64,000 nt of DNA from Patescibacteria group bacterium (GTDB lineage Bacteria; Patescibacteriota; Minisyncoccia; UBA6257; UBA9933). Shown piece after piece: positions 17,493-45,249 of this stretch (position 1 is its first letter; each line of letters begins with the position of its first letter). The DNA is taken from NCBI GenBank assembly GCA_038078555.1, contig JBBTYQ010000003.1:397-64396 (forward strand). Direction: 5' to 3'. A program made the translations under genes and the position numbers. Below the pieces are notes generated by a model. That model did not search any database, was not told the origin of the DNA, and was given only the letters and a program-made list of their open reading frames with translations.

Positions 17493-17511
17493 ACAGTAAA
17501 TCTTTTCAGAT

Positions 17512-22291: not shown

Positions 22292-23188
22292 TTAATTTAA
22301 TTTAATGGCTCTTAATTTTGCAGAACGGCTCCTTGAGTTTTCTCTAATTTCTTCATCGCTCGGCCTGATTGGCTTTTTAGTCAAAATTTCCGCTTTGGCT
22401 TCATTTTTTAATTTCCGGAAATTAGTTTTTACCAGACGATCTTCCAAGGAATGAAAAGAAATTATTGCTATTCGACCTTTTGGTTTAATTATTTTTTCTA
22501 AATCGCTTGAAATTTTTTCCAGATTTTCCAGCTCATGATTTACATAAATCCTTAGCGCCTGAAAAACCCTTGTAGCCGGATGAATTCTGCCTCTTTCGTA
22601 ATTTCCAGGCACCGCTTTTTTAATAACTTCGACTAAATCAAAAGCGGTTATTATTTTTTTCTTTCGCCTTTCTTCAAAAATTTTTTTAGCTATCTGCCGG
22701 GAAAATTTTTCTTCTCCGTATAGCCAAAAAATATCGGCCAGCTCTTTATCGCTAAAACTATTTACAATCTCGCTCGCTGTCATATCTTCGGATTCTGTGT
22801 TATATCTCATATCCAAAATCTCGTTTTTTAAAAAACTAAATCCTCTGCCTGATTTTTCCAGTTGCTCCGACGAAAACCCCAAATCAAGAATCAAACCGTC
22901 GGCTTTTGGCAAATCACATTTTTTTAAAATTTCCGGCAGATTTACATTATTTTCATTTACAAAAATCACATTTTCAAAATTTTTAAAAATTCCATTTTTT
23001 AGCGATTCAATATTTTTTTTATCCCAATCAATCACCAATAATTTCCCTTCAGGGCCGATTCTTTCCAGAATTTTGACGCTGTGCCCTCCGCTTCCGGCTG
23101 TGCCATCTATAAAAAATTCTCCGGTTTTAGGATTTAAAATATCTATTGTTTCTTTTAAAAGAACTGGAACGTGAACCATAATTTTCAA
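22292..23188 (-). CDS. rsmH: 16S rRNA m4C1402 methyltransferase RsmH (MraW)
   Basis: 298 aa with HVPVLLKE, the SAM motif DGTAGSGGHS, and DLGFSS. Confidence 0.95.
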   Translation of the reverse strand: MKIMVHVPVLLKETIDILNPKTGEFFIDGTAGSGGHSVKILERIGPEGKLLVIDWDKKNIESLKNGIFKNFENVIFVNENNVNLPEILKKCDLPKADGLILDLGFSSEQLEKSGRGFSFLKNEILDMRYNTESEDMTASEIVNSFSDKELADIFWLYGEEKFSRQIAKKIFEERRKKKIITAFDLVEVIKKAVPGNYERGRIHPATRVFQALRIYVNHELENLEKISSDLEKIIKPKGRIAIISFHSLEDRLVKTNFRKLKNEAKAEILTKKPIRPSDEEIRENSRSRSAKLRAIKLN

Positions 23189-23280
23189 TTTCTAATTCTC
23201 AATTTTCCAATCAATTTTCAATTATTTAATTTCTAATTTATTTCTTATTATCTTTTGAAAATTGATAATTGAAAATTAAT

Positions 23281-23733
23281 TTAAATTCCCAACTCCGACA
23301 GTTTCTCCGCTATTTCATCGGACGCGCTTTCTGTTTTAGCTTTATATTCTTTCCATGCCAGACTGTCCCAAATTTCAATTCTGTTATACAAACCGGCTAT
23401 CACTGCTTCTTTTTTTAATCCGGCATATTCTCTTAAATAATCCGGTATTAAAATTCTGCCTTGCTTGTCTATTTCAACATCCATTGCACCGGCAAGCATA
23501 AGCCTTGCAAAAGCTCGCGAATTGGCTTGAACCAAAGGTAAAGCAATAAGCTTTTGAGCTAAAATTTCCCAATCTTTAGCGCCAAAAGCAAATAAACAAT
23601 GGTCTAAACCTCTGGTAATAATTGCTCCGCCTGAAAGGTTTGGCCTAAATTTTGCCGGCAAAGCAATTCTGCCTTTAGAGTCTAAATTATGTTGGTATTC
23701 GCCTAATAGCATGCGAATTTTTTCTACAAGCAA
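23281..23733 (-). CDS. mraZ: Transcriptional regulator MraZ
   Basis: It has two SpoVT/AbrB-like halves with DSKGRIALP and DKQGRILIP. A MraZ-like N-terminus (MLLGEYQH) suggests the start at 23712 rather than 23733. Confidence 0.93.
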   Translation of the reverse strand: MLVEKIRMLLGEYQHNLDSKGRIALPAKFRPNLSGGAIITRGLDHCLFAFGAKDWEILAQKLIALPLVQANSRAFARLMLAGAMDVEIDKQGRILIPDYLREYAGLKKEAVIAGLYNRIEIWDSLAWKEYKAKTESASDEIAEKLSELGI

Positions 23734-29741: not shown

Positions 29742-29823
29742 CTATTGCGGCTATTCTTATCATTGTCTTATTATTATACTATAATAAAATGATTAAGTTA
29801 TTTGAATTACTTAAAAATTCAAA

Positions 29824-29847
29824 TAGCATTATTTGCGATTACTCTAA
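29824..29847 (+). promoter_or_regulatory. Conserved pre-ATG element, copy E1 (TAGCATTATTTGCGATTACTCTAA)
   Basis: It directly abuts the ATG of the response-regulator gene. Related copies abut the starts at 30777, 35683, 40492 and 44729. Confidence 0.5.
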
Positions 29848-30282
29848 ATGTTTGACCCTTCCAATAAAATTAAAATCCTTCTGGTTGACGACGACGAGAT
29901 GATAAGAATTTATTTCCGGGATATTTTCTGGATTCACGGCTTGGATAATAAATACGATCTAACCACCGTGGAATCTCCCCAAAAAGCCGAAGCAATAATT
30001 TCAGACCCAAAAACAAGGCCTCATATAATCTTCACCGACCTGGTGATGCCTGCGGAAAAAGACGGCCGAATAATCACCTCGCCAGAGGCGGGTTTAAATT
30101 TTCTTAAAAAGATCAAAACCGACCCGGAGCTTAAAGATGTCAAGGTTATCGTTTTTTCCGGCCACAGCGAAGACACGCTTAAAAAACAAGTAAAAGAATT
30201 AGGCGCGGAAAATTATATGATTAAAAGCGATAATCTGCCTAAAGATTTAATTGAATATGTGGAAAAAATGATTGGAAAGTAA
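29848..30282 (+). CDS. Stand-alone response-regulator receiver domain (CheY-like)
   Basis: 144 aa with the acidic pocket LLVDDDE, a phospho-acceptor-type D in IIFTDLVMP, and no output domain. Confidence 0.85.
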   Translation: MFDPSNKIKILLVDDDEMIRIYFRDIFWIHGLDNKYDLTTVESPQKAEAIISDPKTRPHIIFTDLVMPAEKDGRIITSPEAGLNFLKKIKTDPELKDVKVIVFSGHSEDTLKKQVKELGAENYMIKSDNLPKDLIEYVEKMIGK

Positions 30283-30316
30283 TCGCAAATAATGCGAATT
30301 TAAAAAAATAAAAATA

Positions 30317-30727
30317 ATGCGAATCAATAAAACAAGTACAAGATCAGCGGAAAAAATAATTTTCCCGGAATTAAGTTATAAAATTGTTGGCGCATCATTT
30401 AATATATTCAATGAATTAGGTTGGGGATTGCCGGAAAAAGATTATCAAAAAGCTCTTAAGGAAGAACTAGATGAGTTGGGATTGTCATACAAACAAGAAG
30501 CTTATATTCCATTGCAATACAAAGCGATAAATATTGGCCGATATTTTGCCGATTTTATTGTTGATGATAAAATTTTAATCGAAATAAAAGTAGTATCAAA
30601 ATTAGGTTATGCCCATGTTAAACAAATACTAACTTATCTTAAAGCGGCTAATCTAAAATTGGGAATTTTAATTTATTTTACTAAAGAAGGTATAAAATAT
30701 CGTCGCATTTTAAATTCTCAATTTTAA
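30317..30727 (+). CDS. GxxExxY protein (PD-(D/E)XK nuclease-like superfamily)
   Basis: 136 aa. It carries the signature G-LP-E-KD-Y (GLPEKDY) and the core DFIVDDKILIEIK. The start codon lies inside an AATAATGCGAAT repeat. Confidence 0.8.
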   Translation: MRINKTSTRSAEKIIFPELSYKIVGASFNIFNELGWGLPEKDYQKALKEELDELGLSYKQEAYIPLQYKAINIGRYFADFIVDDKILIEIKVVSKLGYAHVKQILTYLKAANLKLGILIYFTKEGIKYRRILNSQF

Positions 30728-30754
30728 TTTATTCGCATTATTTAGAAATTTTAT

Positions 30755-30776
30755 TAGCATTATTCGCGATCACTCT
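30755..30776 (+). promoter_or_regulatory. Conserved pre-ATG element, copy E2 (TAGCATTATTCGCGATCACTCT)
   Basis: It directly abuts the ATG of the ABC ATPase gene. Confidence 0.5.
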
Positions 30777-32075
30777 ATGGAGTCTATTATAAAATTACAA
30801 AATGTAAATCTCTGGTATGACCGAGGCAAGCCCTCGGAAGTTTGGGCATTGAAAAATATTGATTTAGATATTAATCGGGGCGAGTATGTCGCTTTTTTCG
30901 GACCATCAGGTTGCGGAAAAACAACTTTGCTTTACACTATTGCCGGAATCGACCAGGTTAATGACGGAAAAATTTTGATTAATAACCGGGATATTTCTAA
31001 TTTTTCGCGGCGCGAACTGGCAATTTACAGGCAAATCGGGGTTGGCATAGTATTCCAACAATTTAACTTAATCCCCTCGCTTACGGTAATCAATAACGTT
31101 GCTTTGCCAATGGCATTTCTGGGCGTATCCGAAGAAAAAAGAAAATCCGAAGCAATGAAACTTTTAGAAAGACTGGATATAAAACATTTGGCTGAAAGAT
31201 ATCCTTATGAATTATCAGGCGGCCAACAGCAAAGAGTCGGCATTGCGAGAGCCCTAGCCAATAATCCGCCGATTATTGTCGCGGACGAACCTTTGGGAAA
31301 CCTCGATTCAGTTAACGCGCAAAAAGTTTTAGAATTTTTGAAAGAATTAAACGAAAAAGACGGCCGGACAATCATTATGGTAACGCACGAAGCCTGGAGT
31401 TTACGCGATGCCAAAAAAATTTTTTACATGAAAGACGGCACTATTTTGAAAACCGAGGAATCAAAGCCGAAAACCGTTGCCGAATCGGTATCCAAGCATC
31501 TTTATCAGGAACTTTCACAGCAAATGTCAGCTGCTGAAATCGCGGCCAGCGCGCTCGCCAATATGCTGCTGCGCGGATACTCAATTGACGAAGTAAAAAG
31601 ATTTGAATTTTTTTTAAAACAGCACTTGGAAAATAAAATCGATTCGGAGATTTTTCGAAACGTGCTTGACCGGCCGTTTGCCGAGGGCGGTATCGGCTTA
31701 TGGAAACAAAAAGCCAAAAAAATCGCCGATTACGTTAATGACGTAATTGAAGAAAGAAAAGAGGTGGATGAAGTTTATATGGAATTGGAAAAAAATCCAG
31801 AGTCTCCGCTCAAAGACGAAGTGGAAAAAATAAGAATGTGGCTGTTAAAAGATTACCGCGGAAAATTGTCGGAATTGCAAAAAATTCAGATGGAAGAAAT
31901 TATTTCCGAACGGCTCCGCTCTATTATCGGCGCACCTGATTTCTTGAAAACCGTCAGCTTATCCAAAAAACAATTCGGCATCGGCTTTTCTTACCGCACC
32001 AGCCAAAAAATTTCCGAAAAAATGGAAATGGTTTTGAAAAATAATAATAATTTAAATACTCTTAAAGCAGTATGA
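30777..32075 (+). CDS. ABC transporter ATP-binding protein (MacB/LolD-like) with about 200-aa C-terminal extension
   Basis: 432 aa with Walker A GPSGCGKTT, signature LSGGQQQR, and Walker B IIVADEP. The C-terminal half has no family I recognise. Confidence 0.9.
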   Translation: MESIIKLQNVNLWYDRGKPSEVWALKNIDLDINRGEYVAFFGPSGCGKTTLLYTIAGIDQVNDGKILINNRDISNFSRRELAIYRQIGVGIVFQQFNLIPSLTVINNVALPMAFLGVSEEKRKSEAMKLLERLDIKHLAERYPYELSGGQQQRVGIARALANNPPIIVADEPLGNLDSVNAQKVLEFLKELNEKDGRTIIMVTHEAWSLRDAKKIFYMKDGTILKTEESKPKTVAESVSKHLYQELSQQMSAAEIAASALANMLLRGYSIDEVKRFEFFLKQHLENKIDSEIFRNVLDRPFAEGGIGLWKQKAKKIADYVNDVIEERKEVDEVYMELEKNPESPLKDEVEKIRMWLLKDYRGKLSELQKIQMEEIISERLRSIIGAPDFLKTVSLSKKQFGIGFSYRTSQKISEKMEMVLKNNNNLNTLKAV

Positions 32076-33322
32076 GTTTAGATTTCAGCTCTAAATTAGG
32101 CCATGGCTTAAAATTAATCGACCTTTTAAAACTCTCCTTAAGAGTCTTTAAAACTAAACCCTTGCGGACAGGTTTGACGATTTTGGGCATGTCGTTCGGC
32201 ATCGGAACAGTTTTGTTTCTTGTTTCTCTGGGCTATGGATTGCAATACGTTCTTATAGGAAAATTGGTGGCAACTGAAGATTCTTTAATTTCCGTTGAAG
32301 CTTATTACCCATCTGAAGCAGAGCGCAATATCACCTATGAGGATTTAAAAATGATTTCAGAAATACCTGAAGCCGCAGAGATTTCTCCGGTAGCAGAATT
32401 TACCGGAGAAATAAAATATGAAAAATCCTCGGGCCTTATTATCGTCAAAATAATAAAGCCGAGTTATTTCCGATTATCAGGGCAACTTCCCGATCTGGGA
32501 ACAAGCTTCGCAAAGCTTGAACCGACAACGATTTTATCCAACTCCGCTCTTCAATTAACCGGTCTTTCAGCCGATTATTTAAATTTTACCAACGCAAAAT
32601 CTAATGCTGCTCCGAAATTTTCATTCAAAATATTTTATCAAAGCGAAGAAAAAATAGACGTTGAAGAAGCGGAAACAAAAGAACTGCTGACGCTTAAAGG
32701 AATAATGACCGATGAATTACAGCCGCCTTTTGCTTTTATTCCCGACGAATATATTTCCAAAAAACCGCCTTTTTTTAAAAAGGTTTTGGTTAAAGCCAAA
32801 GACATAAACAGCGTAGAAGGATTGCGCGATAAAATGATAGAAAAAGGTTTCCTTATTTCCGCCAGAATTGATTTAGTCAATCAAGCCGGAAAAGTAATGA
32901 ACATCATTACCATGGTTTTGGGCGTTTTCGGAGTTACGGCTTTAATCGTCGCCGCTGTTGGAATGTTCAACACAATGATTATCAGTTTTATGGAACGTAT
33001 TTTCGAAGTGGGTATTATTAAATCTCTGGGCGCAACCGATAAAGATGTAAGAAATTTATTTCTAATGGAATCTTTTGTAATGGGATTATTAGGAGGCGTT
33101 GGCGGGATAACTTTGGGAGTAGGCGCCGGAGAATTATCTAATTTAGGTTTAAATATTTTAGCTCAAAGATTCGGCGGCAAGCCATTTGATTTATTTATTA
33201 CGCCTTTATGGTTTGTCGGCTTGATTCTTGGCTCATCAAGCTTAATCGGATTGGTTTCCGGATTTTGGCCGGCCCGGCGCGCTTCTTATCTTTCTCCTAA
33301 AGAGGCGTTTATCAGGAAATAA
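32072..33322 (+). CDS. ABC transporter permease, FtsX/MacB type
   Basis: 416 aa with an N-terminal TM helix, a large extracytoplasmic domain and a C-terminal FtsX-type 3-TM bundle. It overlaps the ATPase gene by 4 nt. Confidence 0.88.
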   Translation: MSLDFSSKLGHGLKLIDLLKLSLRVFKTKPLRTGLTILGMSFGIGTVLFLVSLGYGLQYVLIGKLVATEDSLISVEAYYPSEAERNITYEDLKMISEIPEAAEISPVAEFTGEIKYEKSSGLIIVKIIKPSYFRLSGQLPDLGTSFAKLEPTTILSNSALQLTGLSADYLNFTNAKSNAAPKFSFKIFYQSEEKIDVEEAETKELLTLKGIMTDELQPPFAFIPDEYISKKPPFFKKVLVKAKDINSVEGLRDKMIEKGFLISARIDLVNQAGKVMNIITMVLGVFGVTALIVAAVGMFNTMIISFMERIFEVGIIKSLGATDKDVRNLFLMESFVMGLLGGVGGITLGVGAGELSNLGLNILAQRFGGKPFDLFITPLWFVGLILGSSSLIGLVSGFWPARRASYLSPKEAFIRK

Positions 33323-33407
33323 AACTGCAAAGACCTGCCACTATCTTTATAATTGTTATTTATATCAATGAGCCGATTCTTTGAAAATGCGCATAATTAT
33401 TGAATAA

Positions 33408-33445
33408 AAATCGGCTCATCGATCAATTCATAGATGAGCCGATTT
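33408..33445. terminator. 13-bp perfect hairpin made of TGAGCCGAT-family repeat copies
   Basis: AAATCGGCTCATC (33408-33420) pairs with GATGAGCCGATTT (33433-33445). It lies between the convergent ABC permease and GC-rich orphan genes. A further copy is at 33369-33378. Confidence 0.6.
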
Positions 33446-33583
33446 GGTGCAGTATTCTTGAATTAGTCCGAACGCATTTTTCCGGAAAATTCCCCCCGCG
33501 AAAATTCGGAAAGGCGGCGGAGCCGCACGAATGACAATTTCAAGTTTTTCTTTGACGGCAAATTCTTTGTTCTTTGAATTTAT

Positions 33584-33622
33584 AAAAAAGAAAAGGGACG
33601 GGGAGATTTCTCTACCCGTCCC
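33584..33622 (-). terminator. Rho-independent terminator of the GC-rich orphan gene
   Basis: The stem GGGACGGG / CCCGTCCC (33595-33602 / 33615-33622) is followed on the minus strand by TTTTCTTTTTT. Confidence 0.7.
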
Positions 33623-33662
33623 GATGTAGTGTTCAGCGAGGACATTTCGTCTACGCCGAAAC

Positions 33663-34298
33663 TTAAACGAACTTGGAAGCGAGAACCTGCCTCAACTCTC
33701 CGTAGGTCTCGATCTCCTTCGGGAACAGAACTCGCAGGTGGCAACCGCGGCATACGATTGCGTCGTGCGTCTTGGTGGCTCGCGTGCGATCTATCCAGCA
33801 GTTGCAGAAATCATGGATGCCCACGCAAGAACTAAGTTCGCGGTCATCTCTGGTGTGGTCCACGAAGTAATCGCCGGAAGGCGGGTACTCTCGCAGAAAA
33901 TCGCCATCAGAGGTCAACTGGATCGGCTTGAGCGGGACACTACGCTCGATCTCGTGCTGGATTGCCTTGATACGCTCTTGGCGATCTGTTTCTCTACTGG
34001 CGAAGTACAGAGCACGATTGAGCCATCCCGATGCGCGGTAGTGATCGTCGCCATCTCGGCTGATCACCTTGTAGGGGCAGTAGCCGTTGATTGGATAGGT
34101 TTCGCCTGTACTGCTCCCATCTTGGTCGCGATAGTGTCCGACGAGCTTTCCGGGGACAACCTTCGTTGGCTCGAATCCAGCGGCAAAGACGGTCGCGAAG
34201 AGAATCTGCACTTCATCGGCGGAAAGTTCCTTGACCTTGCTCCAGTCATGCTTGAGAGCCAAATTAACAAACGATGCAGCAATTTCGGTCGTTTTCAT
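33663..34298 (-). CDS. Orphan GC-rich hypothetical protein with C-terminal Cys/His cluster
   Basis: 211 aa. It has SD AAAGGAG 6 nt before the ATG and its own terminator. Sampled lines are 53-60% GC. The C-terminus reads CVGIHDFCNCW...VCRGCH. The overlapping plus-strand ORF has no start signals. Confidence 0.65.
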   Translation of the reverse strand: MKTTEIAASFVNLALKHDWSKVKELSADEVQILFATVFAAGFEPTKVVPGKLVGHYRDQDGSSTGETYPINGYCPYKVISRDGDDHYRASGWLNRALYFASRETDRQERIKAIQHEIERSVPLKPIQLTSDGDFLREYPPSGDYFVDHTRDDRELSSCVGIHDFCNCWIDRTRATKTHDAIVCRGCHLRVLFPKEIETYGELRQVLASKFV

Positions 34299-34525
34299 CA
34301 GTCGCTCCTTTCTTTTGTCAATGTGCTAACTAATTAATCAACAGTCTTGCATTAAACCCACAAAAAGTCAAGAAGCAGCAATTGCCGCTTCTTGGAAACA
34401 ATCTTATGAAAATTTTTCTTTTCTGCTTCTAACGGAATCGGGAATTTCTTTTTGCCCTGAAAAATCCGTACGATTTGGTCGCCGAGCGAAGCGAGGCGAC
34501 ATCTGAATCTTTGACATTTCCAATG

Positions 34526-34600
34526 TGGTGCGCCTTGTAGGGATCGAACCTACGGCCTTTCGAATGTGAATCGAACGCTCTACCACTGAGCTAAAGGCGC
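34526..34600 (-). tRNA. tRNA-Val(CAC), CCA encoded
   Basis: 75 nt with acceptor GCGCCTT/AAGGCGC, anticodon arm TTCGA-TTCACAT-TCGAA, and T arm GTAGG-TTCGATC-CCTAC. Confidence 0.92.
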
Positions 34601-34706
34601 ATAAAATTTGCAATAGAGTAAATGAAATATTTTACCGTCAAATTAACTATCTTTAAAAATTAATTATAAACAAAAAAGACGCCTTTTCAATCAGCGTCTT
34701 TTTTGT

Positions 34707-35072
34707 TTAAGCCAATTCCACGGTTGCTCCAACTTCCTCCAGTTTCTTTTTAAGCTCTTCTGCTTCTTCTTTTTTCAATCCTTGTTTTACCGGCTTAGGC
34801 GCGCCTTCAACTAAATCTTTAGCTTCTTTGAGCCCAAGGCCAGTGGCTTCCTTAACAGCTTTAATAACATTTATTTTCTGCTCTCCGACTGCTTTAAGAA
34901 CAACGTCATATGAAGTTTTTTCTTCAGCAGAAGCGGCAGCGGCTCCGGCTCCAGAAGCCATAGGCATAGCGGCAGAAACGCCGAATTTTTCTTCCAATGC
35001 TTTAATTAATTCTGCCAACTCCACCACGGTTAATTTTTCAATTTTTTCAATTATATCGTTAAATTTTTCCAT
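34707..35072 (-). CDS. rplL: Ribosomal protein L7/L12
   Basis: 121 aa with an Ala-rich hinge and the C-terminal domain ...[24 protein letters not shown]... Confidence 0.97.
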
Positions 35073-35179
35073 ATATATAATCCCAATCTACTAATTTATC
35101 CGAATGCTTCAAATCTTGCAAATATAAGTTTATTAATAAGATTTGTAAATTCGGATGTTATTTGTATATTTGGATTGCT

Positions 35180-35683
35180 TTATTTTTCGACCGTTTGTTT
35201 TGATTTTTGATCCAGCACATATAAAAACATCTTCATGGGCGCGGAAAGCATGCCAGCCAATTGAGCGAGCAATACTTCTCGGGAAGGCAATTGACCGATT
35301 TTTTTAACCATATCGCCATCGCAAAAATTCTTGGCCAATAAATCATAGGCGCCTAAAATCTTGAAATTTTTACTTTTGGTTTCTTTGGAAAACTTATAAA
35401 TAGGACCAGCAGCCTCGGAAATTTCGACAGGCGAAAATATCGCGCCAGCCTGTAAATCAAACTGTTCCGGAGTAAAATCATAACCGCTTTCATTCAAAAT
35501 TATCCTTAATAATCTTTTTTTAAAAACTTTCATTTTAGCTCCAAAATTAAGAAGCGCTATCCTTAATTTTTTCAAATCTTCAACAGTAGTTCCGCTAAAA
35601 TCAACAAAAAGCAAAACCTTGCTGTTTTTAAGCAATTTCTTTCCTTCTTCTATTTGCTGTTTTTTTTGCTCTTTTGTAAGCAT
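35180..35683 (-). CDS. rplJ: Ribosomal protein L10
   Basis: 167 aa with an L10-like N-terminus (LFVDFSGTTVEDLKKLR). It lies directly upstream of rplL. Confidence 0.93.
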   Translation of the reverse strand: MLTKEQKKQQIEEGKKLLKNSKVLLFVDFSGTTVEDLKKLRIALLNFGAKMKVFKKRLLRIILNESGYDFTPEQFDLQAGAIFSPVEISEAAGPIYKFSKETKSKNFKILGAYDLLAKNFCDGDMVKKIGQLPSREVLLAQLAGMLSAPMKMFLYVLDQKSKQTVEK

Positions 35684-35705
35684 ATAATGTTCGCGAATAA
35701 TGCTA
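35684..35705 (-). promoter_or_regulatory. Conserved pre-ATG element, copy E3 (TAGCATTATTCGCGAACATTAT)
   Basis: It directly abuts the rplJ ATG on the minus strand. Confidence 0.5.
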
Positions 35706-35928
35706 ATTTCAGCAATTAATTTTCGTTGTTAGCGATTACTTTAAATAAAAATGCGCCTATTTGCAGACGCACTTAAGAGAAACTAAATTTACCAGTTCCT
35801 CAACAGGATTTATCTCCGCTTTGCGGAGCACCTGTCTCCCGACGTTACGTCGGGAGATCCCTCGACGTAACGTCGGGAGATGGTCTGCGGAATTTTTATA
35901 ATATTATCAGACTGATTTAAAAAGTCAA
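35706..35928 (-). promoter_or_regulatory. Structured rplJ leader: promoter, twin GC hairpins, terminator-like hairpin
   Basis: TTGACT is at 35928-35923. Two near-identical hairpins lie at 35880-35858 and 35857-35835. A 7-bp stem plus T-run lies at 35771-35743. The 5' segment CCGCAGAC (35890-35883) can pair with the terminator strand GTCTGC. Confidence 0.5.
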
Positions 35929-35941
35929 TATCTTGGCCGAT

Positions 35942-36247
35942 TTAAACGCTTTTCGTAAAATCAACGCTCTCTTTTTTAAATCTCTCTACTTCACTTTTAA
36001 TAATTTCTTCAAGGTTAGCAACTTTTGCGCGCAAAAAATTCAATATTGCGGCTTCATCGTCAGATTTTTCTGCAAGTAATTTTTCAAGTTCATCCTTGTC
36101 TTTATCATTAAGCTCATCAAGCACTTTTATCAAAACTCCCTGGAAAATTATCCGTCCAATGCTCAAAAGCGCGCTTTCTTGCTCTTCTTGGGGCAAAGTA
36201 TCAAGCCCTATTTCTTTAATTAAATTTTGTTTTAAAATATTGTCCAT
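35942..36247 (-). CDS. Small acidic helical protein, unknown function (resembles a short CPR-restricted family)
   Basis: 101 aa, E/D/K/L-rich and all-helical in character. It is the last gene of a three-gene minus-strand unit. Confidence 0.6.
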   Translation of the reverse strand: MDNILKQNLIKEIGLDTLPQEEQESALLSIGRIIFQGVLIKVLDELNDKDKDELEKLLAEKSDDEAAILNFLRAKVANLEEIIKSEVERFKKESVDFTKSV

Positions 36248-36300
36248 TTTTTCTGTAATTTATCTTCAATTTATTTTCGACCTTGATAAATCATTGATAA

Positions 36301-39216
36301 TCAACGATTGCCGCTGATTTTGCTTTTTATTATCTGCTCAATCGTAAAAAATCCTTTATCGCTTTCAGAAATCCCCAAAGAATTTATTATTTCCGCCAAA
36401 TTCTCATAATGCTTTTGTTTGCCCCAAGATAACCAGCTGCCCTTATTTTCCTCTAAAAATTTATCTACCTTGATTCCCTTAATCGCTTCATATTCATTGC
36501 CAGTTAGGCCTATTTTTCTTTCCAAAAACCCGAGATAAGCAGAATAAATTTGTCGGCTGTCTTCAAATTTTCTATTGCTCATCAGAGCATCTCTTATGTC
36601 TTTTAACCTATCTATTTCTTCCTCACTGCCAAGACCATTAGCTAAATTACCTTCCATGGCTTCAATGTCAGAATTATAAAGATTGACCAGTCTTTCTTTT
36701 TCCGCCAAATTCTGATTATTGAAATTTTCCAAGATTTTATCTAGGTTTTTTTCATTACTGATTTCCGTTACTTCTGATATTTCCGGCTTTTTCCAAACAT
36801 AAGTCGATTCTCCCGCGTCTTTAATGTTAATTTCATTATTATCGCCAAGCAAAACCTCCACTCCCGGCTTTGCGATTCTTATTTCCGTTCCATCGACTTT
36901 AATATAACCCTGTTCAACAAGAAGCTGATTGGTTTGGCGATTTAAAACACTTTTTATTTTTTCGGCATTCGTCAGATCTTCCTGACTTAAACCGAATTTT
37001 TTAGGATCATCATAAAGCCGGTCTTCTAACTGCCGATAAACCGCATGCCAAACGCCCTCGCCCTGCTTAATGGTCGCCAAATCTGCTTGATGTCCGGCTC
37101 TTATTTCTGCCGAAATTTCTGCAACTTTGGTTTTGACGTCTGGGCTATAAGCTTCAGATAAAGGATGTTCAATTTCTACTCCAGATTCTACTTCGGGTTT
37201 TTTCCCCAGCAACCACTCTCCGGCAGTTAACTTAATCGAAGGCATTGCCTGCTCAAGCATATTCAAACCAATTGACGCGCCAGCGCCTGAAGCAATCATA
37301 GCTGCGGCTTTAATAATAAGTTTTTTTCTCTGTGCTCCGACTGATTCTTCTAATATCTTATGGTAATCATTTTCAACTTCAGCTAATTTTTCTACCGAGA
37401 ATCCGGTTTTTAATTTGGAAATCGCTTTTTCTTTGTCAAAAGAGCCAAGTTTTGAATAAATCCAATCAACACCTTTGCCGACATACTGGCCAATGCCGAC
37501 TGACAAAGCTCCTTTAACATATCTTTGTCCGGCAAACATAAGCGCAGCAGCCGGAACAGCAGAAAATCCGCCTGAAAGCGCCACAGCACCGGTAACCAAA
37601 GCAGTGGAAATTGCAATTCTGGTGTACTTGCCTTGATTCAAATACCAGTCCAGCATATTTCTGGCAATATTCTTTTCTTTGGGCGGAAATTGTTCAATCT
37701 GCTCTTTTTGCAAAACCAAGTTTTCATTAACCACTAATTCTTTAAAAACTGGCCACTTTTCGTATCTTTCCAATATTTTTGACAATTTTTCGCCGGAAAC
37801 TCCTTTTCCCTCTAATCTTTGTTTTGCATTAGAAAGCAACTCTCTGCCGTACTTAATTTTTGATTCATCGTATTCCTCTTTCGATTGGCGCATTTTCAGT
37901 AATAAATCACTAATCCCAACACCTTCTTTTTTTGCTTCTTTTAATTTTTTATAAACCTCGAGATAAGCCGCTCTTTTTTCATTGACTAAGAAATTTTCCG
38001 CCTTTTTTTCTTTTTTATTTGCGCCTTCGGGGCTTTCAAAAAGCCCGTCTATTTCACTATCATCTAATGTAGCCGCTCTTGGCGCTTCCTTGGATTCTTC
38101 TGATGGTTCGAATATGACTTTTGGCTTGATTTTTTCTTTAATTTCTTCTCCGACTTCACCAATAACTTCAGCTTCTGGTAAGTCCTCTTCTCTGACTTCT
38201 CCAATCACTTCAGCTTCGGGCAAATCTTCTTCTCTGATTTCTTTTTCGGCAACAGAAGCCGGTTCAATAACTTTATTAATCCCGCTTTTTTCAATAACCG
38301 CGGATAGTTCTTCCGGCGCCTCGATAATTTTCGGCTTAACAGCCGTTTCTTTTTCTTTTTTTTCTGCCTTAATTTTTTCCTTTAATTCTATTTCGTCTCT
38401 CTTTTCTTTGGCTTTGTTAAATTCTTCCTGAAAAAAAGCGACTCTTTTTTCAAAATAATCTTTATTTTTATTCTTGCCGTTTTTTTGCGCTTCTTTAAGC
38501 TTTCTCTTGACTATCGCTAATTCATTGCCGAGCCTGTCTTTCTCCGAATAAACATAAGTTTTTTCTTTTTTTATTTTTGGTTTTTTATCAATTTTAACCG
38601 AAGATTTCTTTTTTAAATCTTTTTCTGATTTTTCGGAATTAGTTAATTGCTTTGATTCCAAATTTTCTTTTGTTTCTTCTATTTCTTCTTCTGCTTCCAG
38701 CGCGCCTTCTTCGATTTCAAATTGTTCTTGTTCCTCTTTTGATGAATTTTCTGCTTGAGCAATTGACTCTCCGGGCGCTTTAATTTTGATATCGCTTATT
38801 TTTTTATTATATGTCCCTTGCAACAACCCGCTGAATTTATTCCTTATTGATTTTACTTCTTTCAAAATATCGCCTTTAAATTCTCCGGCTTCAAAATTGT
38901 CTAATAATTGTTTCAGTTTTTGATCCAGCTTTACATAATATTTTCGGTCGCTTAACGTAAAAAAATTGCCGTCGCGCTCGTTTAAAACAATAAATTCGTC
39001 TTTTAAGCTGTCGATTTGGCTAAGTTGAAACTTTATTTTTGAAGATTCTTCGATTCCTTTTACTAATTCTTTTTTAGATGCCGCGGCACCCAAATCTTTT
39101 GGCTCTTTTTTTAATTCCGGCAATGACTTTTTAAAATCACGCAGAGCGTTTGATGTTTTTTCCAAGTCTTTTTCGGAAGCCTCTGCGCCGCCCAATTTAA
39201 ACTTTTCAGACCTCAT
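36301..39216 (-). CDS. Large coiled-coil membrane protein, unknown function
   Basis: 971 aa. The K/E-rich N-terminal half has the tandem repeat REEDLPEAEVIGEV x2. Hydrophobic Gly/Ala-rich helices lie around residues 530-650. The C-terminal domain of about 330 aa is unassigned. Confidence 0.7.
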   Translation of the reverse strand: MRSEKFKLGGAEASEKDLEKTSNALRDFKKSLPELKKEPKDLGAAASKKELVKGIEESSKIKFQLSQIDSLKDEFIVLNERDGNFFTLSDRKYYVKLDQKLKQLLDNFEAGEFKGDILKEVKSIRNKFSGLLQGTYNKKISDIKIKAPGESIAQAENSSKEEQEQFEIEEGALEAEEEIEETKENLESKQLTNSEKSEKDLKKKSSVKIDKKPKIKKEKTYVYSEKDRLGNELAIVKRKLKEAQKNGKNKNKDYFEKRVAFFQEEFNKAKEKRDEIELKEKIKAEKKEKETAVKPKIIEAPEELSAVIEKSGINKVIEPASVAEKEIREEDLPEAEVIGEVREEDLPEAEVIGEVGEEIKEKIKPKVIFEPSEESKEAPRAATLDDSEIDGLFESPEGANKKEKKAENFLVNEKRAAYLEVYKKLKEAKKEGVGISDLLLKMRQSKEEYDESKIKYGRELLSNAKQRLEGKGVSGEKLSKILERYEKWPVFKELVVNENLVLQKEQIEQFPPKEKNIARNMLDWYLNQGKYTRIAISTALVTGAVALSGGFSAVPAAALMFAGQRYVKGALSVGIGQYVGKGVDWIYSKLGSFDKEKAISKLKTGFSVEKLAEVENDYHKILEESVGAQRKKLIIKAAAMIASGAGASIGLNMLEQAMPSIKLTAGEWLLGKKPEVESGVEIEHPLSEAYSPDVKTKVAEISAEIRAGHQADLATIKQGEGVWHAVYRQLEDRLYDDPKKFGLSQEDLTNAEKIKSVLNRQTNQLLVEQGYIKVDGTEIRIAKPGVEVLLGDNNEINIKDAGESTYVWKKPEISEVTEISNEKNLDKILENFNNQNLAEKERLVNLYNSDIEAMEGNLANGLGSEEEIDRLKDIRDALMSNRKFEDSRQIYSAYLGFLERKIGLTGNEYEAIKGIKVDKFLEENKGSWLSWGKQKHYENLAEIINSLGISESDKGFFTIEQIIKSKISGNR

Positions 39217-39238
39217 AATTTATGAATAATTATTACTG

Positions 39239-40492
39239 CTATATTTCAAAATATCCTTTAACTAAATTCTTTCGTGAAATTTCTTCAAGTTTTTCTTTGC
39301 CAAAATATTCAATGAAAATTTTGTTCCATAATGATTCCTGGTGATGATATAAGTATTTTTCCAGTTCTTTTTCCCTGATTAAAGACATAATGGAATCAAC
39401 TAAATTGAAACTTACCAGAACTTCCACGCCGGTAGCGGTTTTAAAATAATCGCCTACCCAATCCAAGCCGCCCCAGAAATTAAAGTCAACAAAAACATCC
39501 TTAAAAATTTTATTAATATTGGTTAAGGCCTCCTCTGCCTGAACCCAATAAAGCGCCTCCGGAGAAACATGGGGCTCAAGCAATCGCCAGTCGTTTTCGT
39601 CGTATTTCGCCAAGTATCTTGGAAGAACCAGCCAGCGAAGCTTATCGGTTTCCGGAGGCCTTTTTTCAATGATTTCCACTTTCACAATGGAGCCTAAATT
39701 TTTTCCAAAATTTAACGGGTCATTGGCAAATTCCTTAAAAAGTTCGGAATAAGCCTTAACTTCATAAAAATAATGGAGCGCTAAAGAAAAAGCTCTGGTC
39801 ACTTCCCCGAGCATGCCCAGCTCAATGGGCACTACGAAAATAAACCCCAATTCTTTCAAGTGGGAAATGTTTTGATATCTTTTTTTCAAAAAAGACTGGG
39901 CAACTCCGACCCACTTTTGAGTTAAAGATTTTATTTCTATTTCCCTTTCTTCAAAATCGCTGGGAGTCAAACCATCGTATTGTTTGACAAAAACTTCATT
40001 AAACCATTTCGGGTCTTCAAACAAGCGAATGGCAGCGTAAATTTCAAAAATATGTTCCCGGTCAATTAATTCATTAACATCGCGATAACCAAGATAGCTA
40101 ATAACTTTTTGAGGCGGTTCTTTTTTAATTAAATCAACCGCTTTTTCTTTTTTTAAAAACAAACCTTTAAAAGGCGGCATTAATTGCCTGGTTTTTTCTA
40201 AAACTCCGTCAACGTCTTCTTTTAACATAAAAGACGGCTTGCCTAAGGCTTTAAACAATTGCAAATCATCTTGTCTGATTTTTTCTATTAAGGCGTTATA
40301 AATTTCTTCCGCTTTGATATTTTTATCCAGCTCTTTTAATTGAAGCCGATTTTTAATAAGAGCTTCGTTCTCTTCGATAATCTTGTCAAAAACATCGGTT
40401 TTACCGGTAAGCGCTTCGGCTTTATCTCTAATAACGGTAATGGTATTTTTATCAACCCTAAGAATTTTCGCAATTTTTTCTAAAGAAGTCAT
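39239..40492 (-). CDS. Hypothetical protein, 417 aa
   Basis: A long ORF with normal codon texture and no motif I recognise. It is preceded directly by pre-ATG element E4. Confidence 0.7.
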   Translation of the reverse strand: MTSLEKIAKILRVDKNTITVIRDKAEALTGKTDVFDKIIEENEALIKNRLQLKELDKNIKAEEIYNALIEKIRQDDLQLFKALGKPSFMLKEDVDGVLEKTRQLMPPFKGLFLKKEKAVDLIKKEPPQKVISYLGYRDVNELIDREHIFEIYAAIRLFEDPKWFNEVFVKQYDGLTPSDFEEREIEIKSLTQKWVGVAQSFLKKRYQNISHLKELGFIFVVPIELGMLGEVTRAFSLALHYFYEVKAYSELFKEFANDPLNFGKNLGSIVKVEIIEKRPPETDKLRWLVLPRYLAKYDENDWRLLEPHVSPEALYWVQAEEALTNINKIFKDVFVDFNFWGGLDWVGDYFKTATGVEVLVSFNLVDSIMSLIREKELEKYLYHHQESLWNKIFIEYFGKEKLEEISRKNLVKGYFEI

Positions 40493-40515
40493 AATAGTGT
40501 TCGCGAATAATGCTA
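40493..40515 (-). promoter_or_regulatory. Conserved pre-ATG element, copy E4 (TAGCATTATTCGCGAACACTATT)
   Basis: It directly abuts the ATG of the 417-aa gene on the minus strand. Confidence 0.5.
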
Positions 40516-40580
40516 ATCAACAGCAAATAATGCCGATGTATCTAACTCGCATTATTTAAAAAATTTTGCATTATTAGTAA

Positions 40581-41333
40581 TTACTCTTTTATTAACGGCA
40601 CAAAACTGAAACCAAAATACTCTTTTTGAGAATATTCATTTTTAGCCAGCTTGTCAATTACAACAATCGAATTATCAACCGGCGCGACTATTCGGCCGCC
40701 GATTTTTAATTGTTTTCGCCATTCGCCAGGCACATCGCCAGAACTAGCGGCTCCACAAATAATTTTATCATAAAACTCCGCAGGTTTATAGCCCTTAGAA
40801 CCATCTGCCAAAATAACGCTAGTGATGCCTTTTTCAATAAAATTATACTTTGAAACATTCTTCTCGGCCATTTCTTTAAGCTCGGGAATGCGCTCTATAG
40901 CTATTACTTTTGGCGCCGGTTTTTCAGAATTAACAGAATTTTCTGCTTCTGAAATATCGTTTTTTTCAAGGATATTTTTATCGCTATCCTTATCTGCCAA
41001 ATAAGATAAAATCGCCGTCTGCCAGCCGCTGCCTGCGCCAATTTCCAATATATGCTCTCCGGATTTAGGTCCTAAAAGCTCAATCATAAAAGCAACCGTT
41101 AAGGGTTGGGAAATGGTTTGGCCAAAACCGATGGGTAAAGGCGCATTAATATAAGCTTCGTTTTTATATTCTTCGGATACGAAATTAATTCTATCAACTG
41201 CCCTAAATGCTTCAATTATTTCCAGTGTTTTTAAATAACCATCCTGGATTAAAGAATCAATTAGATTTTCGTATTCCTGATTGACTATACTATTCATTAA
41301 TACTATAATAATATAAATTGACTTAATTGCCAA
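40581..41333 (-). CDS. pcm: Protein-L-isoaspartate O-methyltransferase with about 40-aa acidic insertion
   Basis: It has GFGQTISQPLTVAFMIELL and the SAM motif ILEIGAGSGWQTA. The likely start is ATG 41297 (MNSIVNQEY...) rather than 41333. Confidence 0.88.
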   Translation of the reverse strand: MAIKSIYIIIVLMNSIVNQEYENLIDSLIQDGYLKTLEIIEAFRAVDRINFVSEEYKNEAYINAPLPIGFGQTISQPLTVAFMIELLGPKSGEHILEIGAGSGWQTAILSYLADKDSDKNILEKNDISEAENSVNSEKPAPKVIAIERIPELKEMAEKNVSKYNFIEKGITSVILADGSKGYKPAEFYDKIICGAASSGDVPGEWRKQLKIGGRIVAPVDNSIVVIDKLAKNEYSQKEYFGFSFVPLIKE

Positions 41334-41369
41334 TTTTTTGAAATTTTAAAACTCAAAAAGGAGGTCTTA

Positions 41370-41525
41370 ATGAAAGAAAGGGAAGAAAAAAAACAATTTC
41401 TTAAGCCTGAATTGGAAAAAAATAAAATATTGCCCAGCGCCAATAAACCGCGAGATAATTTGTGCCATTTTAGCAACTGCGCCGAAAAAAAGTGCAAGAG
41501 GCTTAGAAACGAAGGAAATATCTAG
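41370..41525 (+). CDS. Small ORF (51 aa), basic, C-x4-C-x4-C
   Basis: It was not in the ORF track because it is under 60 aa. AGGAGG lies 5 nt before the ATG. It translates MKEREEKKQFLKPELEKNKILPSANKPRDNLCHFSNCAEKKCKRLRNEGNI. Confidence 0.45.
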   Translation: MKEREEKKQFLKPELEKNKILPSANKPRDNLCHFSNCAEKKCKRLRNEGNI

Positions 41526-41550
41526 AACCCAAACAAAAAGGAACAAGAAA

Positions 41551-41736
41551 ATGAATGATAAGAAAAATCTGCAAGGAAAAGATTGGACTATTAGATGGGA
41601 AAAAAGCAATAACGGCTCAGAAAAACACGACAGCGGAGAACAACACTGTTGTCAAGACGAAGCCATCAACATAGCCGATAAAATGCTTGCTAAGGGCTAC
41701 GGAATAACAATAATAAAAAGAAAGGAGAAAAAATAA
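41551..41736 (+). CDS. Small ORF (61 aa), unknown function
   Basis: It follows the 51-aa ORF after 25 nt, and a strong terminator follows directly. The antisense ORFs in this region are F/L-rich and look spurious. Confidence 0.5.
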   Translation: MNDKKNLQGKDWTIRWEKSNNGSEKHDSGEQHCCQDEAINIADKMLAKGYGITIIKRKEKK

Positions 41737-41754
41737 GAAAAAGGAATATCAAAA

Positions 41755-41790
41755 ACCCCTTGATGTAATCAAGGGGTTTTATTTATTTTA
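41755..41790 (+). terminator. Rho-independent terminator
   Basis: A 10-bp stem (ACCCCTTGAT / ATCAAGGGGT) with loop GTA is followed by TTTTATTTATTTT. Confidence 0.8.
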
Positions 41791-41831
41791 AAATTTGCTA
41801 GAAAACCAAAAAAATTATTTTTCGCGTTTTG

Positions 41832-41902
41832 CGGGCCCACGAGGATTTGAACCTCGATCAACGGTTTTGGAGACCGTCATTCTGCCATTGAACTATAGGC
41901 CC
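41832..41902 (-). tRNA. tRNA-Trp(CCA)
   Basis: 71 nt with acceptor GGGCCTA/TGGGCCC, anticodon arm ACGGT-CTCCAAA-ACCGT, and T arm CGAGG-TTCAAAT-CCTCG. Confidence 0.9.
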
Positions 41903-41948
41903 ATTTAAAAATTCCAAATATTTTATATTCGGGATTTTTATAAAGAAA

Positions 41949-42116
41949 TTATACCTTGGCCTGTTTATGGGTTGTGCGCTTCTTGCACCACTTGCAATAC
42001 TTTTGATATTCCAACTTCCGCTCTAAAGATTTTTTCTTGCGCGTATAATAATTATTTCTCTTGCAAATTGTACATTTAAGCTTTATTAAATTTTCTGAAA
42101 ATTTTGATTTAGCCAT
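41949..42116 (-). CDS. rpmG: Ribosomal protein L33
   Basis: MAKSKFSENLIKLKCTICKRNNYYTRKKKSLERKLEYQKYCKWCKKRTTHKQAKV (55 aa with a CxxC...CxxC pattern). The ORF-track extension to 42176 reads through a structured non-coding element. Confidence 0.93.
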   Translation of the reverse strand: MAKSKFSENLIKLKCTICKRNNYYTRKKKSLERKLEYQKYCKWCKKRTTHKQAKV

Positions 42117-42142
42117 AATCGTTGAAACTTTAAACAATTCCA

Positions 42143-42220
42143 CCCCCGCGCCTATAAACTGCATAAAACTATGCAATTAAATGGCTTGCGCCATTCCTCA
42201 CGCGCTCATAGGCACAGGGG
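42143..42220 (-). ncRNA. Candidate structured RNA (three-way junction) upstream of rpmG
   Basis: P1 has 13 bp (42220-42208 with 42155-42143) and is complete only on the minus-strand RNA, through two G-U pairs. P2 is ATGGC-GCAA-GCCAT with a GNRA loop. P3 is TGCATA-GTTT-TATGCA. Confidence 0.4.
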
Positions 42221-42286
42221 TTTATTTTATTTTAAACATTAATATTAAAAAAACAATAGCTGATAATTAAATATAACTACATTTTG

Positions 42287-42358: not shown

Positions 42359-42363
42359 ATAAA

Positions 42364-44729: not shown

Positions 44730-44753
44730 GGAGTATTCACTAATAATGCGAAT
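44730..44753 (-). promoter_or_regulatory. Conserved pre-ATG element, divergent copy E5 (ATTCGCATTATTAGTGAATACTCC)
   Basis: It directly abuts the ATG at 44729. It shares the CGCATTATT core and the A-T-ACT tail with E1-E4. Confidence 0.35.
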
Positions 44754-44808
44754 TTTTAGCGAATAACGCTAGTCGCATTATTAAATTTTATTAGTATTAT
44801 TGTAATTA

Positions 44809-45249
44809 CTATATTTCGTATCGGCAAAATCTTTCCACTTTGATATTTTCACCCAGTTTGGCGACTGTTTGTTTTATTAAGGATTCAATATTTAATGATT
44901 CGTCTTTGACATAATTTTGAGCCAATAATTCCTCGCTGTCCTTTGGATTCATTGCGGCAACATGCATTGCCAGATTATGGGCAAGTTCCTTAAATACGGG
45001 ATTGCGCGCCACAAAATCAGTTTCACATCTAAGCTCAAGCAATACGCCGACTCTTTCGTTGTGGATATAAGACTGCAAAAGTCCGGCGCCGGTAGCCCGC
45101 TCGCTCTTTTTTTCAGCTTTAACTAAACCTCTTTCGTGAATGATAGTTATGGCTTTTTCAAGGTCGCCGCCTGCGTCTTCAAGCGCTTTTTTGCACTCCA
45201 TCACGCCGGCGCTCGTAATATCCCTAAGTTTTTGAACTTGCTCTTTCAT
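44809..45249 (-). CDS. tsf: Elongation factor Ts, minimal form
   Basis: 146 aa with the UBA-like N-terminus [26 protein letters not shown] and the core TDFVARN. TATAAT at 45258-45263 lies 8 nt before the ATG. Confidence 0.9.

Follow-up and report, generated by a model that had tools for sequence, protein, structure and literature searches.

A motif before start codons as the outer arm of a palindromic insertion element of Parcubacteria

The motif and the element that it terminates

Why should one conserved motif of about 22 nucleotides (nt) stand directly before the start codons of five unrelated genes? The question arises from a stretch of 64,000 nt of a Patescibacteria group bacterium (positions 397 to 64,396 of contig JBBTYQ010000003.1, assembly GCA_038078555.1; hereinafter, the window). 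Its initial annotation, made from the sequence alone, described the five copies and took them for a possible promoter-proximal, operator, or translation-initiation module. We found that an insertion element of palindromic structure, present in Parcubacteria (Paceibacteria), has the 22-nt motif as its outer terminal arm. The element exists in short, geneless copies and in a long form that carries a gene of the GxxExxY family. The window belongs to a genome of about 37% GC whose proteins are nearest to those of Candidatus Wolfebacteria, and genes identical to its own are found in Hainich groundwater assemblies.

The conservation of the motif is real and non-random. A degenerate 20-mer, TAGCATTATTYGCGAWYAYT, has six matches in the window at ≤3 mismatches, against a mean of 0.18 in shuffled sequence (0 of 100 shuffles reached six), and the core word GCATTATT occurs 20 times where 6.6 occurrences are expected. 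Four of the matches are exact: those before the genes for the response regulator (29824-29843, plus strand) and the ABC ATPase (30755-30774, plus strand), before rplJ (35686-35705, minus strand), and before the gene for a 417-amino-acid (aa) protein (40496-40515, minus strand). A fifth, with 3 mismatches, precedes the gene for a 116-aa membrane protein (44732-44751, minus strand). These five copies do end 2 to 4 nt before the named ATG, as had been claimed, but a sixth copy that the initial annotation missed (30278-30297, minus strand, 1 mismatch) overlaps the stop codon of the response-regulator gene, and the motif is therefore not specific to starts. A general tie of the motif to gene boundaries first became apparent from this sixth copy. 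Degenerate partner arms at 35721-35740 and 40566-40585 had also been missed. Two further details of the earlier description were borne out: the palindrome TTCGCGAA is found in both the rplJ copy and the copy before the 417-aa gene, and the spacers are composed of AATAATGCGA/TCGCATTATT in both orientations.

To describe the element beyond the window, we scanned one genome per species for the exact 20-mer TMGCATTATTYGCGAWYAYT, which yielded at least 118 loci. The exact-match requirement builds in the conservation of the 20-mer itself; the flanks of the 20-mer, which the search left unconstrained, are likewise conserved. The element has the palindromic layout AGTAATCGCGAATAATGCGAAT-N6-9-AATAATGCGAAT-loop-ATTCGCATTATT-N6-9-ATTCGCATTATTCGCGATTACT, and each of its arms consists of three copies of a unit of about 10 nt (NGCRTTAYT), two in tandem at the tip and the third 20 to 22 nt further in. 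Across about 1 Mb of loci we found 185 arms. The distance from left to right arm is bimodal, with about 70 geneless elements of 62 to 139 nt (mode 85 to 106) and six elements of 456 to 497 nt. Sixty-eight short elements of 77 to 139 nt have terminal inverted repeats (22-nt outer arms and inner units) around a short non-coding core, as expected of miniature inverted-repeat transposable elements (MITEs).

The matches listed come mostly from Parcubacteria assemblies (Wolfe-, Lipton-, Harrison-, and Colwellbacteria, unnamed Patescibacteria, and bins labelled Saccharibacteria), and at least about 45 assemblies among them bear arms. The 85 loci with true arms come from hosts of 33 to 61% GC. Matches in other phyla and four matches in viral contigs lack the inner unit and were rejected as chance. 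A few loci have no simple palindrome but a start-side arm duplicated in tandem, or several arms in an array (L028:5621-5765; L102:3168-3302 and 6664-6798; L064:7660-7850).

Insertion and polarity at stop-start junctions

Is the element inserted DNA or an ancestral part of the spacers? Four syntenic relatives of the window (L123 to L126) share the gene order S2, EF-Ts, small membrane protein ... PCMT, 417-aa protein; L123 and L126 additionally have L10, L12, MacB, ABC, and response-regulator genes nearby, and the relatives' 417-aa proteins are 72 to 79% identical to that of the window. Between the PCMT and 417-aa genes, the window has 88 nt with an element, L123 has 54 nt that we read as a relic, and L124 has 87 nt with arms of a sister family, compared with only 18 nt in L125 and 3 nt (TAA-ATT-ATG) in L126. 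Between the EF-Ts and membrane-protein genes, the window has 79 nt with an element and the spacer of L123 is filled exactly, from TAA-GG to ATG, by a well-preserved element of 96 nt, compared with 1 nt in L124 (called as a gap of 31 nt; the start was re-read), 5 nt in L125, and 2 nt in L126. Between the response-regulator and ABC ATPase genes, the 494 nt of the window, which include the nuclease gene, correspond to 16 nt in L123 and 18 nt in L126; this junction is not in the L124 locus, and the two genes are not adjacent in the L125 locus. The rplJ element is likewise absent from the same place in L123 and L126.

Because the same junctions are short or overlapping in relatives, the elements are inserted DNA, and because the three junctions show three different phylogenetic distributions, at least three insertion events are implied. 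Filled and empty orthologous sites, another MITE hallmark, are therefore present at three junctions of the window. The best-preserved window copy, which carries the cargo gene, is the most restricted in distribution, and the syntenic 20 kb contains 0 to 2 arms in the relatives versus 8 in the window. The sister arm family at the PCMT-to-417-aa junction of L124 (9914-10000), built of GAGTAATC-CGAATATACGAAT units, also occurs in L135, L137, and L138, and in metagenome loci it flanks GxxExxY genes of its own.

The position of the arms relative to genes explains how the motif came to be noticed. Among the 185 arms, 77 are followed by the ATG of an open reading frame (ORF) of at least 60 codons, with an offset of 2 to 4 nt in 64 of the 77. 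Another 65 meet the stop codon of a gene that reads into the arm: 24 of these genes use the TAA inside AGTAAT, and 18 have their stop 1 nt outside the arm, in which case the TAA of the arm is an in-frame second stop (worked out by hand). The remaining 43 arms are in neither class, many of them being tandem arm duplications or lying beside ORFs below the length threshold. Both flanks could be classified for 41 of the 60 paired complete elements, and 37 of these run from stop to start, with 3 doubtful start/start cases and 1 stop/stop case. The proportion of 37 in 41 is uninformative as an enrichment for co-directional genes, given that about 86% of the junctions in the window are co-directional (manual count).

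The elements occupy very short junctions of co-directional genes, where one arm touches or supplies the upstream stop codon and the other ends 2 to 4 nt before the downstream ATG. The motif appeared to abut start codons because the element fills the stop-start junction. The initial annotation had also considered that its copies might be remnants of one dispersed repeat with no preference for start codons; remnants of one dispersed repeat they are, but the repeat does prefer gene boundaries, starts and stops alike.

The two arms of an element are not equivalent. Position 16 is A (GAAYACT) in 45 of the 77 start arms versus 1 of the 65 stop arms (P = 6e−15), a variant that creates the palindrome TATTCGCGAATA, and the A content of the spacer is 39% in start arms versus 19% in stop arms (P = 1e−8). 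T16 is present in every stop arm of the 37 stop-to-start elements (37/37), and A16 in 28 of their start arms, which places a mismatch at the fifth pair of the stem. The cargo gene is co-directional with its neighbours, as seen directly in the window copy and by manual reading in the other long copies. The element is thus polar, its cargo and both neighbouring genes having one direction and its start-side arm being unlike its stop-side arm. Given the differences between the arms and the direction of the cargo, the short elements inherit a "before cargo/after cargo" polarity that is aligned with host transcription.

The window holds one intact element (30278-30774) and four older, decayed relics. 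On the plus strand, the stop-side outer arm of the intact, full-length element, AGTAATCGCAAATAATGCGAAT (30278..30299), pairs with 30753-30774 at 86%, and the TAA at 30280-30282 within it is the stop codon of the response-regulator gene. The inner left unit AATAATGCGAAT (30311..30322) contains the ATG (30317) that starts the cargo gene, which encodes a GxxExxY protein of 136 aa (30317..30727) and lies in the loop of the palindrome in the same direction as the flanking genes. The inner right unit ATTCGCATTATT (30731..30742) is the inverted-repeat partner of the inner left unit, and the start-side outer arm, ATTAGCATTATTCGCGATCACT followed by CT (30753..30776), directly precedes the ATG of the ABC ATPase gene (30777).

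Among the relics, the solo start-side outer arm before the response-regulator ATG (TAGCATTATTTGCGATTACT followed by CTAA, 29824..29847, plus strand) has no recognisable inner unit or partner arm upstream; together with 30278-30303 it forms a 26-nt inverted repeat (88%) that spans the response-regulator gene. The other three are short elements on the minus strand. A decayed one (AGTAATCGCTAACAACGA...TAGCATTATTCGCGAACATT, 35686..35740) separates the ATG of rplJ from the terminator-like hairpin in the leader of that gene. Another, of 90 nt (40496..40585), fills the spacer from a PCMT-like gene, whose stop lies inside AGTAAT, to the 417-aa gene. The third, decayed and 79 nt long (44732..44810), lies between tsf, whose TAG overlaps AGTAAT, and the gene for the 116-aa membrane protein.

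All eight arms of the family in the window fall within one 15-kb stretch (29824-44810) around the sole cargo-bearing copy, with none in the window at 1-29 kb or 45-64 kb; local spread is possible, the numbers being small. The region upstream of rplJ (35749-35930, minus strand) has a promoter-like site (TTGACT-16-TAATAT), tandem 23-nt palindromes (35835-35880), and the terminator-like hairpin (35774-35749). It resembles an L10 leader, and a search of Rfam with it gave no match even at E ≤ 1.

The GxxExxY gene, spread of the element, and alternative explanations

What could move such an element? A GxxExxY ORF is found in the loop of all six long elements, that of the window included, and is frameshifted in one of them (L079). 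In the full-length form, the inner unit AATAATGCGAAT contains the ATG with which this gene begins. Viewed from the side of the gene, 9 of the 11 GxxExxY ORF matches in the 1 Mb of loci lie between full arms (the window copy, four copies of the same species, and four from other genomes). The exceptions are the frameshifted L079 copy, which lies inside an arm pair identified separately, and a Harrisonbacteria gene (L071), which lies in a different inverted-repeat family with CCAATATAGC-like units. A parent with the same ends as the short copies exists (6/6 long elements), and its GxxExxY gene has no known transposase activity. The arms at the sides of the Harrisonbacteria gene (L071:120-590) belong to a third family (CCACCAATATAG/GCCAATATAGC units), and the same 8-kb locus has an element of the AATAATGCGAAT family at 4679-4768, so that two families coexist in one genome.

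The cargo protein of the window matches PF13366 (PDDEXK_3) with E = 3.5e−33 and TIGR04256 with 116.8 bits versus a curated cut-off of 35, and it has the GxxExxY and D...ExK motifs of the GxxExxY family. Ten diverse members from five phyla share without exception G37, E40, and Y43 as well as the catalytic residues D79, E89, and K91. An AlphaFold model of the protein has a pLDDT (predicted local distance difference test) score of 91.7, and its closest folds are Cas4 SSO0001, lambda-type exonucleases, MGME1, and the archaeal resolvase Hjc. On the basis of this model and the motifs, the cargo protein is predicted to be a minimal PD-(D/E)XK nuclease. A sequence search of the PDB returned only a marginal Cas4 match (E = 0.46), and the Pfam and NCBIfam matches above cut-off were limited to PF13366 and TIGR04256, with no HUH/Y1 transposase among them. 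A survey of PD-(D/E)XK proteins lists the function of PDDEXK_3/GxxExxY as "Unknown" (PMC3424549). The window has a second small PD-(D/E)XK gene of another family (PF11645, PDDEXK_5, E = 2.4e−21) at 43932-44303 on the minus strand, adjoining a tRNA-Tyr gene.

GxxExxY genes are associated with inverted repeats well beyond Parcubacteria. A tblastn search of plasmid records found GxxExxY genes in Sphingomonas, Bernardetia, and Treponema, each with inverted-repeat arms. The arms in Sphingomonas, where the gene lies between fabD and fabG, are 25 nt long and 92% complementary, with CGCGAAG units; those in Bernardetia, between ade and a guanylyltransferase gene, are 28 nt long (86%) with CACAGAGA units; and those in Treponema are 28 nt long (71%). 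In the Sphingomonas parapaucimobilis plasmid (L128:1449-1914, NZ_CP155749.1), the gene is 33 and 2 nt away from its neighbours in the fatty-acid synthesis cluster, and the C terminus of the annotated GxxExxY protein is encoded by the right arm.

A metagenome scan gave 80 diverse GxxExxY loci (34 to 67% identity), 71 of which were testable. Flanking inverted repeats with a score of at least 12, the threshold used, were found at 58 of the 71 loci versus 0 of 93 displaced controls and 11 in direct orientation. The arms are again tandem units, here of 7 to 11 nt (e.g., CACGAAT, CGCAGAG, CGCAAAG, CACAGAT, and TACAAAT), and protein identity correlates with the sharing of arm words (Spearman 0.38; permutation maximum, 0.11). 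In this broad set, about half of the arm ends lie ≤5 nt from the end of a neighbouring gene, and the neighbours are co-directional in 47 of 52 cases upstream and 38 of 44 downstream. We tentatively conjecture, while leaning somewhat against it, that GxxExxY proteins are the mobility nucleases of bacteria-wide palindromic elements that colonise operon stop-start junctions, with polar arms serving as "stop-hairpin-start" adaptors and short copies moved in trans. If the adaptor reading were true, the arm would supply a stop on one side and on the other keep the downstream gene translated without a Shine-Dalgarno sequence. The placement of GxxExxY genes inside inverted-repeat elements gives a biochemically testable hypothesis for a large family of unassigned function.

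Both the arms and the short copies carry traces of how the element may spread. Even where the host genome reaches 61% GC, the arms stay AT-rich. Pairing between the arms of an element is poor at the variable positions (2, 11, and 16), being possible in only 21 to 24% of cases, and we found no compensatory changes between arms, which argues against a purely structural constraint. That sequence is conserved and pairing is not points to a protein reading the units. Among short elements, the internal parts are ≥80% identical in 19% of within-genome pairs versus 1% of between-genome pairs, and copies of one genome share the same loop junction (e.g., L001 with L027, and L008 with L028 and L088).

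We propose, with a probability of roughly 75%, that the motif belongs to a palindromic insertion element with a long, GxxExxY-carrying form and geneless short copies, whose spread is promoted by the nuclease. The phased conserved units would be protein binding sites, most plausibly for the GxxExxY nuclease, which may promote spread by cutting target junctions or by acting on the arms. Once inserted, the element would be co-transcribed, or read through, with the operon, and only those insertions that keep the downstream gene translated would survive. Translation downstream might be maintained by re-initiation across the foot of the stem, by a terminating ribosome that melts the stem, or by RNase III cleavage. 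If only insertions with downstream translation survive, the stop-arm...arm-ATG geometry would be explained, and so would the start-arm variant, by which the hairpin is weakened at its foot. The short copies would be MITE-like derivatives of the autonomous element.

Several points weigh against this explanation. No target-site duplication is visible in the three filled/empty comparisons, where the flanks are the stop and start codons themselves, and no filled/empty polymorphism within the species was found among eight response-regulator contigs (four with the same order and four reported as similar). The link between nuclease and mobility rests on co-location and co-variation, and the gene could be a passenger. 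A PD-(D/E)XK nuclease of 130 aa alone cannot join DNA strands and hence does not provide a complete transposition chemistry. Some of the short copies could have been left by deletion in place instead of having moved in trans. Those in the window are decayed, and two of them, at 40496..40585 (z = −1.0) and 35686..35740 (z = +0.6), fold as RNA no better than shuffled sequences; the third has z = −3.2. Finally, the copy numbers and taxonomic range obtained from the genome scan are lower bounds.

Could the element instead act as RNA, with its hairpin in the polycistronic mRNA serving as a processing or coupling device that is cut by RNase III or brings stop and start together for re-initiation? 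The model would be the ORF-bearing intervening sequences of 23S rRNA, and cutting of the stem would free the cargo mRNA and a downstream mRNA with a short leader. Such a role is compatible with insertion, and we consider it possible, if doubtful. Intact copies fold very stably (−35 to −54 kcal/mol, z = −6.7 to −10); the left foot of the stem holds the stop codon, and the AUG follows the right foot at 0 to 3 nt. The empty sites are overlapping or tightly spaced genes, as is typical of translational coupling, and the co-directional setting of the 37 classified elements and the A16 mismatch at the fifth stem pair also fit. However, pure structure does not require a primary sequence that is kept across hosts of 33 to 61% GC, and the poor pairing of the variable positions without compensatory change is not what it would leave. 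The two decayed window copies with z = −1.0 and +0.6 have lost the fold, yet the genes are intact.

A second alternative concerns the short copies, each of which might be an immobile, in-place remnant of a GxxExxY-bearing insertion after loss of the gene. Short and long copies have identical arms, one long copy (L079) is already frameshifted, and the relics of the window show progressive decay, all of which this scenario accommodates. The loop junctions shared among copies of one genome and the excess of internal identity within genomes (19% versus 1%) fit the amplification of a short progenitor instead, and we regard in-place origin as unlikely.

The module proposed by the initial annotation, in which CATTAT would be a −10 box with a very short leader or the motif would be a ribosome-recruitment sequence of non-Shine-Dalgarno type, fares worse and is in our judgment improbable. 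The fixed distance to the ATG (2 to 4 nt in 64 of 77 start arms) and the variant specific to start arms (45/77 versus 1/65) speak for it, TTCGCA-N17-CATTAT looks like a weak sigma-70 promoter, a TATAAT-like box lies 5 to 14 nt before the start of 14 of the 57 window genes, and a Shine-Dalgarno 4-mer precedes only 7. The lack of a Shine-Dalgarno sequence before the motif-bearing genes, although correctly reported, is for the latter reason not distinctive. As the identity of the motif, however, a promoter, operator, or ribosome-recruitment module does not hold: the same arm meets 65 stop codons, and the orthologous genes of relatives lack the arm and lie 3 to 18 nt from, or overlap, the upstream gene. 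Moreover, the element carries a cargo gene and has genome-specific subfamilies.

Nor do the arms coincide with the best promoter candidates. TTCGCA-N17-CATTAT agrees with the consensus at only 8 of 12 positions (manual count), and in a scan for sigma-70 promoters (≥9/12, spacing of 16 to 18 nt) and terminators the arms were not called, no arm site of this type being among the best 60 of 80 sites. Better promoter-like sites lie upstream of the arms, at 29757-29785 for the response-regulator gene (10/12) and at 35928-35901 for rplJ, where the arm is downstream of both the promoter and the leader hairpin. Divergent gene pairs, which would be a test of promoter activity, are limited among the classified elements to the 3 doubtful start/start cases. 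Given the start-arm variant and the fixed spacing of 2 to 4 nt, the start-side arm may still have a secondary role in the expression of the downstream gene. The few Shine-Dalgarno 4-mers (7/57) and the TATAAT-like hexamers (14/57) of the window suggest, in their own right, widespread leaderless mRNAs or mRNAs with very short leaders.

It is very improbable that the arms are operators arrayed for a dimeric transcription factor whose regulon would be defined by the palindromes TTCGCGAA or TATTCGCGAATA. The 12-bp perfect palindrome of start arms, the phasing of units at 10 and 21 nt, and the response-regulator gene between two arms would suit such an array, but the genes downstream have no relation to one another, half of the arms face the end of a gene, orthologous genes lack the sites, the elements have a gene of their own, and the response regulator has a receiver domain only and no DNA-binding domain. 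Integron-like cassette recombination, with the arms as attC sites, can practically be set aside: imperfect palindromes do adjoin one ORF at its stop and the following ORF at its start, and the cargo is promoterless and co-directional with its neighbours, but the arms have no GTTRRRY core, no integrase was noticed among the called genes of the window or the annotated syntenic loci, and the genes on either side are housekeeping genes, conserved along with their order, and not cassettes.

Wider meaning and comparison with known systems

The palindromic insertion element appears to be undescribed, in line with the initial annotation, which had recognised no described motif. The elements gave no match in Rfam 15 at the gathering score or at E ≤ 1, and no published description was found in the searchable literature, which leaves out most subscription journals; the papers retrieved with "GxxExxY" were off-topic. 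Genomes of the candidate phyla radiation are about 1 Mb in size and are thought to be streamlined, and a good part of the intergenic DNA of these genomes appears to be relics of elements of this kind. For annotation, a caution follows from the position of the arms: they extend predicted proteins by false residues at the N or C terminus and mimic conserved regulatory motifs. The stop-arm...arm-ATG geometry is also a natural experiment, in which an operon tolerates an insertion of 90 to 500 nt between coupled genes.

A similar build, from short words that recur in both directions, is seen in other intergenic spacers of the window (52966-53049, 23179-23281, 52468-52538, 9221-9301, 11624-11680, and 2253-2329), which run up to the next start codon; the words include AGAACTT.../...AAGTTCT, AATTTTCAATT, AGATATGAGAAA, TAATTACT/AGTAATTA, and CTAATAAGCT. 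These spacers resemble the remains of further families of such elements, and much of the intergenic DNA may be of this origin. A perfect 23-nt inverted repeat of a different nature (17407-17429 and 17486-17508) brackets a tRNA-Lys gene (17421-17492, minus strand); it consists of the 7-bp acceptor stem and 16 perfectly paired flanking bases (TGAAAAGATTTACTGT...ACAGTAAATCTTTTCA) and resembles a long precursor processing stalk.

How does the element compare with the short repeats already known from bacteria? MITEs (e.g., Correia and Nezha), repetitive extragenic palindromic sequences (REPs), mycobacterial interspersed repetitive units (MIRUs), and neisserial REP2 repeats have been reviewed together (PMC3184786). 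Like MITEs and their parent insertion sequences, the element comes as many small geneless copies with terminal inverted repeats and in genome-specific subfamilies; its orthologous sites may be filled or empty, its RNA forms stable stem-loops, and a longer version with the same ends carries a gene. Unlike MITEs, it has no visible target-site duplication, its long form carries a gene for a 130-aa PD-(D/E)XK GxxExxY protein rather than a known transposase, its ends coincide with stop and start codons, and it is polar to host transcription.

A second likeness is to REPs, with their bacterial interspersed mosaic elements (BIMEs) and REP-associated tyrosine transposases (RAYTs): there, too, a single-copy gene lies between inverted copies of a short palindromic repeat that is scattered through the intergenic DNA of that genome, and protein and repeat co-vary. 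However, RAYTs are HUH/Y1 enzymes of the IS200/IS605 type, whereas the protein here is a predicted PD-(D/E)XK nuclease, and REPs are single hairpins of 20 to 40 nt, whereas the arms here consist of three phased units.

MIRUs lie between the genes of operons, within the polycistronic mRNA, and overlap the adjacent genes at their ends, and REP2 repeats provide downstream ORFs with a 5′ untranslated region and a start site (PMC3184786). Our element resembles MIRUs in sitting between genes with its ends overlapping the neighbours. A MIRU-like mini-ORF that would bridge stop and start was looked for by eye on the element sequences, and none was consistent. The sequences of MIRUs and REP2 are unrelated to the element, and neither of the two has a nuclease-bearing full-length form.

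The 23S rRNA intervening sequences of Leptospira and others, with which the "four helix bundle/23S rRNA-intervening sequence protein" family is associated, form a stem that is cut by RNase III. Those that bear an ORF share with the element a small ORF in the loop of a long stem of terminal inverted repeats in a transcribed region of the host. The element, by contrast, lies between protein-coding genes, as do all copies of the window, which contains no rRNA gene, and its cargo is GxxExxY. Free-standing homing endonuclease genes include PD-(D/E)XK types, such as I-Ssp6803I, and resemble the long form in being small, co-directional nuclease genes between conserved genes, with presence/absence variation in relatives. 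The long form shows this variation and a conserved catalytic motif. They differ from it in having neither long terminal inverted repeats nor geneless derivatives, and in occupying one cognate site rather than many unrelated junctions. The kind of protein, the three-unit arms, the ends that coincide with stop and start codons, and the polarity set the element apart from MITEs, REPs, MIRUs, REP2 repeats, and 23S rRNA intervening sequences.

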